Below are positions 20,043 through 31,965 of a DNA stretch of 51,659 bases, in pieces. Position 1 is the first letter of the stretch; each line of letters starts with the position of its first letter. The stretch covers positions 186,001 through 237,659 of the forward strand of contig QPGO01000128.1 in the NCBI GenBank assembly GCA_008632985.1, given 5' to 3'. This DNA is from Psammoneis japonica (taxonomy: Eukaryota). Below the pieces are notes generated by a model. It saw only the letters and a program-made list of their open reading frames with translations. It had not been told where the DNA came from and ran no database searches. The position numbers and the translations under genes are program-made.

Positions 20043-20391
20043 CTTCACAACTTCGCATGAATCATCATTGTCATCTTCTCTTCTTCGTGCAAAACGCAAC
20101 ACCTCTACAGAAAGAAATGGGCCAAATTGAAAATACCAGACGATCGACTCGTGTTTTGCGTACTTTCTAGTACTGTTTCTACTATGAAACGCCACCACAA
20201 GCGAAGACTGTTTTTTTTTCAATTTCGGCGGTCACAGCGCCGCACATACCGCAAAGAAACAGCCCAACCTGCTTCTGTATGCTTGTGTCTTGTGTGTAAC
20301 ATTACAATAATATAAGTCAAGAGAATATAACTCTTTGTTTGCCGCGAAGATCGAAATATCAAATTCGCGGTTGTGTCGTGCGTTGACCGAA

Positions 20392-22401
20392 ATGAGCAAT
20401 CATGAAGCATTGACCTTACCGAGACGACCGACTCCATTCTTACGAAAACCGCTGGCAGTTGTTCAACGGGAACAGCGACAAGAAGCACTTCGACAAAGTA
20501 GCACGGTTGGTAGTAATACTGATGGAGAAGAAGGTGGTGGTGATCACGTTCGATTAGCAAGACACTTGTCCTTGTTGGATTTAGTATCCATTGGTGTGGG
20601 AGGAACGATTGGATCGGGTGTGTTTGTATTGTGTGGATTGATTGCCAATGAATACGCTGGACCGGCAACCGTGTTGTCCTGGGCCATTGCCGGTGTTGCA
20701 GCGTTTTTGTCCGGTTGTTGTTATGCCGAGCTCAGTGGACGAATTCCGACTGCTGGTTCTTCCTATTCCTATGCTCATGTTAGTATGGGTGAATTGCCAG
20801 CCGTTGTGACGGCATCAATGTTGACGCTAGAATTTTTAGTTTCGGGAGCCGCCGTAGCGAGGTGCGTCATGTGACTGGGGATTGAGATTTGAGACGTTTT
20901 TCAACATGGGATTTGCTCACTCTTGTTTGCTATTTTAAGATCTTGGGGAGACAAGGTTGTGGAATGGTTACGTGTTGAGATGGAAGCGGGGGATTGGGTA
21001 GACACGTATTTAAATCCGGGTTGGGGGTTCAACCCAATGGCAATGGCGGTTTCAGCCGTCACGTGTGCACTGGTATACGGTGGGGTCCGCGAATCAAAGA
21101 TTGTAACAGACATTTTCACCTGGATGAAAACTTTATTGGTGGCATTCATGGCTCTCGGCGGTCTTGCGCTGATGAATCCTTCAAACTTGAAACCATTCGT
21201 ACCACCAGAGTTTGGGATTTCTGGTGTGATGCGTGGAGCAACTTCTTCGTTCTTTGGATACCTGGGATACGATGGCATTTGTTGCGTGGCTGGGGAGGCT
21301 AAAAATCCAACAGTCAACCTACCAAAGTCTGTCCTCATCACACTGGTAATTGTGACAGTTCTGTACATTATCGCTGCATTAGGTTTGGTGGGGATGCAGC
21401 ACTACACCGAAATCAGCCCCGAAAGCGCCTTTCCAGAGGCGTTTGCAGCAAACGGGGTTGAATGGGCTGCGCAACTTACAGCGGTAAGAAATACTACCAG
21501 TAGAATTGGGCAGAATCGCTCTGTCATGGAACGGTCGTCTAACGCATCTATTTACTACGGAACTCTACAGGCTGGAGAGATTATAACGTTACCAGTGGTT
21601 GTCTTGCTATCCTCTGTGCTGCAACCGAGATTGTTTTACGCATTGGCGTGGGACGGGTTTCTCCCACCGGTGTTTGGCAAGGTTGATTCACACGGAAACC
21701 TTCGAAAGGGAATATTAATCTCGGGGAGCTGCATGACGATACTGGCCGGGTTTGTGCCGTTTACGTATTTGGACGACTTTGTCAGTGCCGGGATTCTGAT
21801 TGCATTTTCCATTACCAATTCATCTCTTGTCTTGATGCGACGAGAGTCGCCAATGGAACGACCCTTTTTGTTGGAAAAGATGCTGTTGGTGTTTAGCTTG
21901 CTTTCCCTCTTGACTGGGTTGGTACTGAGACATGCCTCGTTAGAGACTGCTTTCGGATTGACTGTGGCAATGTGTTTTCTCGTGGCAACAACTGTTTGGG
22001 GTGCCGTTTTGGGATGCTCTTGTCCGAGAAGCATTGCCTTTGGCGGCGACACCACGCTGACTACCGACATTATTGACGATGCTGTGAACCAGCGATATTT
22101 TGAAACTCCTTGTGTCCCACTCATTCCGCTCCTGGGGATATTTACCAACTGGTACCTTGTCGCACAACTAGAGTATCTTGGGATTGTTCTATTGATCATC
22201 TATATCGCATTGGCGATTGTTCTGTATTGGATGTATGGGGCCAAACACAGCGTGGGGAACAACACCAACTGGAACCAGAGTGAGTACGAAACAGCAGATG
22301 CAGGAGAGATCGAAATGGATCAACTCGACGATGCTGAAGACGTGCAAACACAGTCCACAATGAATGGTAGCACGGCAGTGGCCGATACCGAATTAACTTG
22401 A
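20392..22401 (+). CDS. Cationic amino-acid transporter (APC superfamily); introns 20862-20939 and 21484-21570
   Basis: LVSIGVGGTIGSGVFV, CYAELSGRIPTAGSSYSY, FFGYLGYD, EAKNP, PRLFYALAWDG and FETPCVPLIP. GT-AG introns join the frames in phase. Confidence 0.93.
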
Positions 22402-22415
22402 GAGCGCGGCGACTT

Positions 22416-23279
22416 TTACTCTGACGGACTATCTCGCAGAAACTGTTTCTTGTTCCTCTCAAACATTTTGAGGCGTTGGTACGCTTCCTCTACTGATACG
22501 CCGTTTTGTGGCACTACGGAATCCATGTCTTCTGCTTCATCATCGGTAATGATTTGTAAGCCTTCGCATCCGCCAAGAGTTGGCGACCAATAGGGAATCG
22601 CCTCTGGCTCTTGTTTGTCATCTGGCTTTCTCACTTCAGCATTCCACGAATCCTGGCTCGCCATGACTTTGGTCCAAAAGGGATAGGTTGAACACTGAAT
22701 CGGCCGTGCCTCGTAGATACTGCATTGATTGCTCTCTTCCAAAAATACACAAGCTCCTCCTTGGTTGTTCTTCAAACGAATCCATTTCTTCTTTGGATCG
22801 TTGTCATTTTCCAAAACGAGGGATGCATATTGTTCCATAAAATCTTGTGGAGATAAATCTAGCAGTTTCGCAGCCCCTATAATTTCGTTGGGCGACATGT
22901 AAACGCTTCCTTTTGTTTTACAACATTTTCCACAGGCCGTACAATCAAACGGCAGAGTGGGACCAACTGTTGTGCTCGACATGAACCATGGTGACTCTTT
23001 CTCGATTTCTTTCAAATGAGAACGTTCCAGCGCCCGAGCTAGAGTTGCACTGTCATCTTGGTGACTGTCGTCCTCGTTGTGAGCTCTTTGGGTAACTCCT
23101 AATAATTGTCCTTTCTTGCTGTGTCTTGCTATAAGACTTGGTTTCCTGAACGAAGGACTAACGATTCTTGTCGGAACAAGTGCATGGGCACTGAATTTCC
23201 CTTGAGTCATCATAGTCAGAAGCAGCAGAGCTATCATCATTGATATGTATCCGACATTTATGCAGTGTCGACGATTCAT
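22416..23279 (-). CDS. YkgJ/FliB-type zinc/iron-chelating cysteine-cluster protein with an N-terminal targeting sequence
   Basis: FDCTACGKCC, CVFL, CSIYEARPIQCSTYPFW and CEG motifs; hydrophobic N-terminus. Confidence 0.88.
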   Translation of the reverse strand: MNRRHCINVGYISMMIALLLLTMMTQGKFSAHALVPTRIVSPSFRKPSLIARHSKKGQLLGVTQRAHNEDDSHQDDSATLARALERSHLKEIEKESPWFMSSTTVGPTLPFDCTACGKCCKTKGSVYMSPNEIIGAAKLLDLSPQDFMEQYASLVLENDNDPKKKWIRLKNNQGGACVFLEESNQCSIYEARPIQCSTYPFWTKVMASQDSWNAEVRKPDDKQEPEAIPYWSPTLGGCEGLQIITDDEAEDMDSVVPQNGVSVEEAYQRLKMFERNKKQFLRDSPSE

Positions 23280-23409
23280 TTGGTGCTATTGCTTCTGTAT
23301 TACGGTAGAATTATGGAAGCAAATTGTGGCGAGGTCGTGCGTCGTGCAGGCCGCCATTTGCCATTTTCTGGCTGCGGCGTGCGTGAGCGAAAAGGTTATT
23401 GCGGTGCAC

Positions 23410-30817: not shown

Positions 30818-31800
30818 ATGACTGGAGAACCGGTGGGAGACTTTTACGTCCACCTCTTGAACGGACAAGAGGTCTCGTCCGAAATGACATCGTCCACGAA
30901 ACTGCTCAAAGGCCAACCCTCGGTGATTCACTTTTACGACGGAGGCTGAGGCGGGTGCCGCCCCTGCGCGGCACAAATGGAAAAGTGGGCAAGGGCCATT
31001 TCCCCAAAAGTCCAATTTCTATGTGTCTGTGTCGATTCGCTGGTGGTGGCTCAACTGTTTGATCGCATGTTTGGATTCGAGCATGCCGTCAATGCCCACA
31101 TTCCATCGCGTTCCTACATGCCACACGGATGCGGTCAATTAGGCTGTTCTGGATTTGTGGTTTCGGATGCGAATGGAAACTTTGTGAGTCGCAAGACAAT
31201 GGCCTTTCTTCAGCATGGCGACAAAGCCTTTCGTCACGTGGAGTCGCTCTTGGCGGAACAGCTATCCTCGCTGACCCAACGGCTACCATCATTGAAGAAC
31301 ACAAGAATGACGACCCAGGAAGTAGCGTGGATTGTACCCCTGCCACGATTGGAATCGAGAGTATGGATCACGAACACGAACGTTGTGCCAAGGCTCTCAA
31401 GCGTTTGTTACAACAACCCACGGTCAAGAGCCTACGAGTCGTCGTAGAAGAGCTGGAGGCCCACTTTGCCCACGAAGAAGCACTCATGGTGAAATATGGC
31501 TGTGGAAACGCAAGAGGCGACGGCCAATTCTCCCCTTTGCAATCTCACATTCAGGATCATTTGAGAATCGTCGAGCTAGGCCGAACCGAACTCAAACGAG
31601 TCCAGGATAATGCTGCTACGCTCTCCTCCTCGAGCTGTAGCATGGGAGACACCAATAATATGTCATCGTGACATTCGACCGTGGCTGCCACAGCACCAGT
31701 TGACCCCAAGGTGGCCACGGCAATTGCAAAAGCGTTTCAACTTCATGCAGACACCTTTGACGCATTCTATGTTGATTACATACCCTCGACTGCAAACTAG
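30818..31800 (+). CDS. Candidate selenoprotein: thioredoxin-like domain (GG-U-GGC-RPC) fused to a hemerythrin domain; in-frame TGA at 30947-30949 and 31669-31671; one frameshift near 31270
   Basis: ORFs 30476-30949 and 30977-31447 are in the same frame and separated only by TGA: VIHFYDGG*GGCRPCAAQMEKWA. Hemerythrin ligands HEH, HFAHE and HIQDH are in ORF 31129-31671. The last ligand, HADTFD, follows the second TGA in frame, ending at TAG 31798-31800. The 5' end is uncertain because a possible splice acceptor precedes ATG 30818. Confidence 0.8.
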
Positions 31801-31861
31801 AGTCGAATATGGAGCTCTTGACATGTAGTAGGGACTGGCGGAGGTCGGAAGGAGGATGCGT

Positions 31862-31965
31862 GTACTTGAGAGAGGTGTCATCAGAATGACAGCCTAGAGA
31901 GAACCGTATTTGTAGCTGCTGTGCTTACACGGTCCTGGGCTTGACAATGATGACCCTCCCAGTAC
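31862..31965 (+). promoter_or_regulatory. Eukaryotic SECIS element candidate (type II)
   Basis: Lower helix gtact..gagg.gtcatc pairs with gatgac.cctc..agtac. Core ATGA at 31886 faces TGA at 31942. Helix II is agcctag/ctgggct, followed by an unpaired GAA bulge and an apical ministem accgt/acggt. It lies about 60 nt after the stop codon. Confidence 0.8.

Follow-up and report, generated by a model that had tools for sequence, protein, structure and literature searches.

In the algal TlpA selenoprotein family a hemerythrin metal-binding domain has been reported, and approximately 80% of the family members were described as Sec forms in the main text of that survey (Jiang et al. 2020, BMC Genomics 21:699, PMC7539508). 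For the diatom Thalassiosira pseudonana, one thioredoxin-like selenoprotein was described that is restricted to unicellular eukaryotes (Lobanov et al. 2007, Genome Biol 8:R198, PMC2375036). An earlier note on the DNA studied here had cautioned that algal selenoproteome surveys might already include proteins of this type, and the hemerythrin domain reported in the main text of PMC7539508 justifies that caution. The low-iron-induced hemerythrin gene of Phaeodactylum was considered as a further match and rejected, as the protein described in that report is a different one of the hemerythrin/CHY zinc-finger type (PMC5156380).

Here we analysed a stretch of 51,659 nt of DNA from the diatom Psammoneis japonica (from here: the window). 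With a probability of roughly 0.8, we predict that it contains a nuclear gene for a selenoprotein of approximately 327 residues, belonging to the algal thioredoxin-like ('TlpA')/hemerythrin family, with UGA codons at positions 44 and 285 and one SECIS element in the 3' UTR (Table 1). tRNA genes of any kind, including one for tRNA-Sec, were not found in the window. Elsewhere in the window, a 289-codon open frame on the reverse strand (22416-23285) encodes a putative zinc- or iron-chelating domain with the motif CxxCxxCC (PF03692, 51 bits). On the forward strand, an open frame of about 760 codons (20311-22593, TGA read through) contains many hydrophobic stretches and appears membrane-transporter-like by eye; its three in-frame TGAs may mark introns.

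Table 1. Features of the predicted selenoprotein gene and its 3' UTR, in window coordinates
Feature	Position	Strand	Basis or remark
Coding region, intronless	30818..31800	+	327 codons with C added behind 31272
Start ATG	30818-20	+	agrees with homologues opening M-x(1-4)-PVGDFYVH
TlpA/peroxiredoxin-like thioredoxin-fold domain	30818..31270	+	weak Pfam matches, PDB profile match, homologue model
TGA, codon 44, predicted Sec 1 opening the U-G-G-C motif	30947..30949	+	TGA in 13/13 related loci
Cys codons of the redox motif	30956-58 and 30965-67	+	
Frameshift site, window minus one C	31272..31273	+	extra C in read-derived contigs of runs X1 and X2
Hemerythrin four-helix di-iron domain	31351..31797	+	PF01814, myohemerythrin profile, seven ligand positions
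Conserved Cys codon before Sec 2, C-x10-U	31636..31638	+	Cys 4-10 residues before Sec 2 in window and 12/12 loci
TGA, predicted Sec 2, codon 285, loop between hemerythrin helices 3 and 4	31669..31671	+	TGA in 12/12 loci
Stop TAG	31798-31800	+	end of the 327-codon frame
predicted SECIS element, 3' UTR	31877..31954	+	fold, pattern, covariation
SECIS helix I, 7 bp	31877-83/31948-54	+	
SECIS core, AUGA facing GA in internal loop	31886-89 and 31943-44	+	helix II adjoins
SECIS unpaired AA	31902-03	+	followed by a further small helix

The frame that begins at the start codon reaches the first TGA after 43 codons and, if this is read through, remains open to position 31447. A second frame (31063-31671) contains the hemerythrin domain and closes at the second TGA. 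The earlier note had proposed that the list of open reading frames splits a single gene here, a fusion of a thioredoxin fold with a hemerythrin domain. Both proposals were borne out by nine full-length homologues of 313-351 aa (P0002-P0007, P0009, P0014 and P0047), which are contiguous single proteins and align end to end with both pieces of the window. When one C is added, the restored frame has TGA at codons 44 and 285 and ends with TAG. Of these two TGAs, the first had already been recognised as lying in frame; the second in-frame TGA had been overlooked, hence the gene is now predicted to encode two Sec residues.

A scan of metagenome contigs yielded 13 related loci (L001-L013). The window protein has neither a membrane anchor nor a signal sequence and opens directly at the conserved M-x-x-x-PVGDFYVH, unlike L004, L006 and the database protein P0004, in which a hydrophobic, signal-peptide-like N-terminal extension precedes the conserved start (L004:73-220, L006:85-214 and P0004 residues 1-38).

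As the earlier note had stated, the fusion requires correction of a frameshift near position 31270. Compared with read-derived contigs, the window is one C short at 31272/73, and this C restores the frame. The extra C is present in assembled contigs of two public sequencing runs from one sample, X1 (depth 51.9, in a contig of 4505 nt) and X2 (depth 4.2). An intron in place of the frameshift was considered and rejected, since excision of any suitably long GT..AG interval fails to give an open frame. The frame-restoring contig may represent another haplotype or strain because six further sites also distinguish it from the window. Two of these six are T>A at 31185 and A>T at 31187 in the X1/X2 contigs, by which the conserved V-S of GNFVSRKT becomes E-C.

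The missing C in the window copy is either an assembly error or the mark of a defective allele. In the latter case the 1-nt deletion would be real in this haplotype, the window copy would be a dead allele or pseudogene, and another allele or strain would code for the protein. This would explain why the window is frameshifted at a site that is not a homopolymer run, and it would agree with a read-derived contig that, differing at six further sites, may stem from another haplotype or strain. Against it, the window is intact apart from the one base, with both TGAs, every codon for an iron ligand, the V-S conserved in the family and the predicted SECIS element, and the contigs of both runs show a single form, the one with the extra C, with the limit that rare variants drop out of assembled contigs. 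We regard a dead window copy as rather unlikely.

The peptide around the first TGA reads VIHFYDGG-U-GGCRPC. This TGA had been assigned to the redox-motif position of a thioredoxin fold, and the assignment holds: the codon is kept as TGA in all 13 related loci. Cys occurs at this place in a single homologue (P0104), within a diverged motif. The proposed overlap of a UxxC with a CxxC motif fared differently for its two parts, since UxxC is universal, whereas CxxC is lost in two of the 13 loci, the motif's second Cys being replaced by V in L007 and by T in L009. In L010-L013 an intron lies directly after the U-GG-C-R-P codons and parts the redox motif from the second Cys (L010:1627-1800, L012:1627-1800 and L013:1132-1300). 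L009 continues in frame past U-GG-C-R-P and has its own intron further downstream.

The scores for the thioredoxin-type Pfam families were too low (Thioredoxin in the window, 17.6 bits at a cut-off of 23.5; Redoxin in the window, 14.9 bits at a cut-off of 26.6; AhpC-TSA, 18.3 bits at a cut-off of 26), and with these three families sequence-profile membership in the thioredoxin-like TlpA/DsbE subgroup was not found. A sequence profile compared with solved structures matched thioredoxin with an E value of 5e-5. In addition, a structure model was computed with AF2 for the homologue L001, not for the window protein, with Sec read as Cys and 57 alignment rows (pLDDT 84.7, pTM 0.77). The L001 model shows a thioredoxin-like fold in which helix 1 starts at the redox motif: a strand at residues 44-49 is followed by Sec 1 (residue 53) in a loop, and the active-site helix begins at Cys 56 of U-x-x-C. 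Foldseek returned 83 matches for this model at E <= 0.001, and the best-ranked matches listed were thioredoxin-fold proteins of the TlpA, DsbE, CcmG, ResA, peroxiredoxin, thiol-peroxidase and Sco kinds. The N-terminal domain was superposed on 3gl3 with a TM score of 0.74, on 3kcm and 2b1k with 0.66 each, and on several peroxiredoxins.

The second domain of the L001 model consists of four long helices. For the window, Pfam PF01814 (hemerythrin) scored 30.1 bits at a cut-off of 25.3, with a match that ends before the second TGA; among the homologues, L001 reached 32.1 bits, while L002 and P0002 scored 22 and thus remained under the cut-off. The profile comparison with solved structures yielded a match to myohemerythrin over the H...HxxxE region (E 3.5e-6). 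A hemerythrin di-iron motif had been claimed for this gene, and all seven ligand positions are indeed present in the window (H, HxxxE, HxxxH, HxxxxD), in columns that are invariant or nearly so in the homologue alignments. The last two of them lie behind the second TGA, where 42 codons remain in frame up to the TAG and encode the last helix of the bundle with the H-x4-D ligands. In the window and in 12/12 loci, a Cys is located 4-10 residues before the second TGA codon. In the L001 model, the loop between helices 3 and 4 that contains this Cys and Sec 2 has a pLDDT of 50-60.

At the position of Sec 2, the codon is TGA in 12/12 loci that reach this point, and each terminal stop of the related loci is either TAA or TAG. 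pN and pS were compared for nine genes free of introns, those of the window and of L001-L008. In 36 of 36 pairs pN was lower than pS, both for the segment from the ATG to the first TGA and for that from the second TGA to the stop; therefore, both outer segments appear to be translated. These data also bear on the possibility that the second TGA is a true stop, which would leave one Sec in the protein and 42 untranslated codons behind it. Most public gene models end there, and the Pfam hemerythrin match stops before it. Nevertheless, the downstream frame is open to TAA or TAG in 12/12 loci and under purifying selection in all 36 pairs, the H-x4-D iron ligands of helix 4 lie downstream, and six homologues have a Cys at this place and continue beyond it. 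We consider termination at the second TGA highly improbable and hold to the prediction that it encodes Sec 285.

The database proteins show how these codons have been treated in public annotation. A search with the first 160 residues yielded 79 of 101 candidates at E <= 0.01, and the organisms named among the matches were all diatoms (Pseudo-nitzschia, Nitzschia, Amphora, Odontella and Chaetoceros). Eight of the nine full-length forms have W at both TGA positions, and the ninth, the JGI gene model P0047, skips both places. Across the 79 homologues, W occurs at the Sec 1 position in 11. We infer that these W residues arose where a gene caller translated TGA as Trp. A Met located 10 residues behind the first TGA is the first residue of about 54 of the 79, most of which end a few residues before the second TGA, as would be expected if a gene caller stops at both TGAs. 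Among them, the MMETSP transcript models P0044 and P0045 have this Met as their first residue and terminate just ahead of the second TGA, which fits mature mRNAs that retain both TGAs.

A profile search against 1.84 billion representative sequences gave 693 matches at E <= 1e-3, 474 at E <= 1e-10 and 210 at E <= 1e-30; in most of the 150 matches listed, residue 1 corresponds to profile position 60 and the end falls near 265-291. The homologues that read through with a Cys at the Sec 2 position are P0049, P0092, P0097, P0101, P0174 and P0209. At the Sec 1 position, P0104 is the only one with Cys. Among more distant homologues, P0129, P0130, P0155, P0161, P0177, P0184 and P0195 share the two-domain layout without the C..U loop motif; in P0195, the residue at the first Sec position is W (perhaps TGA), as part of a C-W-P-C motif.

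The 3' UTR hairpin of the window starts 86 nt past the stop and 215 nt past the second TGA. Its folding energy is -40 kcal/mol (z = -3.7), which none of 200 shuffled sequences matched. In shuffled versions of the window, the strict SECIS pattern occurred on average 1.9 times per 103 kb, counting both strands, so that approximately 0.005 matches would be expected by chance in the 300 nt behind the stop. Two other strict-pattern matches in the window were rejected as chance-like: one on the forward strand at 22981-23063, which lies opposite an ORF and whose fold is not more stable than those of shuffled sequences (z 0.75), and one on the reverse strand at 27528-27493, inside an acidic coding run. 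A second SECIS element was not found between 31800 and 32900 even with relaxed rules, and the hairpin at 31877-31954 is the sole candidate to recode both UGAs.

That a SECIS element follows the stop, as the earlier note had suggested, is supported by covarying helices across 10 loci, but the Rfam threshold is missed: the model SECIS_1 aligns end to end with the hairpin at 13.4 bits, whereas its gathering score is 35, and this match appears only if the search is confined to 141 nt. In a scan of 3 kb, Rfam reported no SECIS. The Rfam model seems insensitive for these elements because it missed those of the relatives too, with none found in 11 related loci.

A fold-based scan, which by its design favours paired elements, was performed for 12 loci and the window. 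Downstream of the stop, SECIS-like elements were detected in the window and in 10 loci; that of L001 is doubtful, and for L008 no such element was found in its 360 nt. The window, L002, L003, L005 and L009 have a single element. Two per 3' UTR are present in 5/12 loci scanned, namely L004, L006, L007, L010/L011 and L012. The paired elements are located at 1578-1647 and 1888-1979 in L004, 1536-1611 and 1807-1848 in L006, 1949-2022 and 2225-2315 in L007, 2714-2780 and 2831-2872 in L010, and 2747-2814 and 2866-2907 in L012. They are 117-310 nt apart, and the loci fall in two groups.

For a comparison across loci, 15 SECIS elements from 10 loci (window included) were anchored on their AUGA/GA cores. 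AUGA and GA are invariant in all of them, with a mismatch (C.U or C.C) at position 1 throughout. Over positions 2-10, 120 of 135 cells contain a pair, compared with 42-58 when the partner strand is slid by 1-3 positions, a level of pairing that is partly built into the fold-based choice of elements, whereas the register and the compensatory changes are not. None of 1000 column shuffles reached 120 paired cells, and each position of helix II shows 3-6 pair types among the 15 elements. The unpaired AA does not keep a fixed distance in all 15 elements.

It is highly improbable that the TGAs are decoded as Trp or simply read through and that the hairpin is an unrelated 3' UTR structure: database proteins do show W at both places and Rfam makes no SECIS call at its threshold, but the W residues probably originate from the gene caller, the DNA of the loci, including that behind P0009, has TGA at both positions, Sec 1 lies where thioredoxin folds have their catalytic Cys, a sense codon in homologues specifies Cys rather than Trp, and hairpins with an AUGA/GA core and covarying helices lie in the same place in 10 loci.

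With both TGAs read as Sec, the family may tentatively be described as a two-Sec enzyme that combines a U-x-x-C centre, a di-iron hemerythrin domain and a mobile C-x(4-10)-U couple, and that uses two SECIS elements in some diatom lineages; we rate this description as a little less probable than its opposite. Judging from the folds, Sec 44 would be the attacking residue of the U-x-x-C centre in a canonical thioredoxin-fold active site, and Sec 285 would form a second selenol/thiol couple with the Cys 4-10 residues upstream. This couple would sit on the flexible loop that joins helix 3 to helix 4 in a complete di-iron bundle. The most likely mechanism, although doubtful in this specific form, is a relay: the di-iron site would bind O2 or peroxide, and the mobile C..U couple would pass reducing equivalents from the U-x-x-C centre to this site or to a substrate, or in the reverse direction, similar to what is known for the C-terminal Cys-Sec arm of thioredoxin reductase. 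The protein might then act as an oxidant-reducing or oxidant-sensing enzyme.

If the description as a two-Sec enzyme is correct, these proteins would contain their own selenol relay, leading to an iron site that binds O2 or peroxide. Selenium and iron, two scarce micronutrients in the ocean, would be linked in one predicted protein of a major phytoplankton group, and the two-Sec model offers a target for studies of Se and Fe limitation. The genes also offer a naturally occurring example in which one or two SECIS elements would serve a pair of UGAs. The family is large, with the 210 representative clusters at E <= 1e-30. Most public gene models are cut at both TGAs, by which the catalytic Sec and the last iron-binding helix are lost; hence, what appears in annotations and in expression studies is no more than a 'hemerythrin-like' fragment.

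Compared with the described selenoproteins, the gene appears to be a new member of a catalogued family. Like the protein studied here, the algal TlpA selenoprotein combines a Sec-containing thioredoxin-like domain with a hemerythrin domain and occurs in algae, a match made by description only (PMC7539508). In comparison with the approximately 80% Sec forms given there, nearly all relatives collected here carry TGA. The present analysis adds a second predicted Sec and its partner Cys, the occurrence of two SECIS-like elements per 3' UTR in some lineages, the base that the window lacks and the widespread truncation of public gene models. The main text of PMC7539508 is silent on a second Sec, the conserved Cys before it and two SECIS elements, which its supplement may record; an account of a second Sec or of two SECIS elements in the TlpA/hemerythrin family was not found in full-text searches of the literature. 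The T. pseudonana selenoprotein is likewise a diatom protein with a thioredoxin-like fold, for which the text of PMC2375036, as far as it was accessible, gives no sequence, hemerythrin domain or Sec count.

Beyond the algae, the modelled N-terminal domain can be superposed on bacterial TlpA, ResA and CcmG (DsbE) and on peroxiredoxins, with the redox motif in the same place. In contrast to the bacterial TlpA/ResA/CcmG proteins, the window protein has a predicted Sec in place of the first Cys and a fused hemerythrin domain, and lacks an anchor or signal. With myohemerythrin and hemerythrin (PDB 1a7e, 2mhr) it shares the same seven iron-ligand positions, and it differs from myohemerythrin by a loop of approximately 34 residues with Cys and Sec between helices 3 and 4 and by the fused redox domain. 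Selenoprotein P is a multi-Sec selenoprotein with two SECIS elements. The genes described here resemble it in having more than one UGA per mRNA and, in 5/12 loci, two SECIS-like elements, with one in the window; the proteins are not homologous. Thioredoxin reductase possesses a C-terminal Cys-Sec arm, to which the loop of the present protein is likewise comparable without being homologous: in both, Cys and Sec would lie on a flexible segment, here not adjacent but spaced as C-x(4-10)-U.
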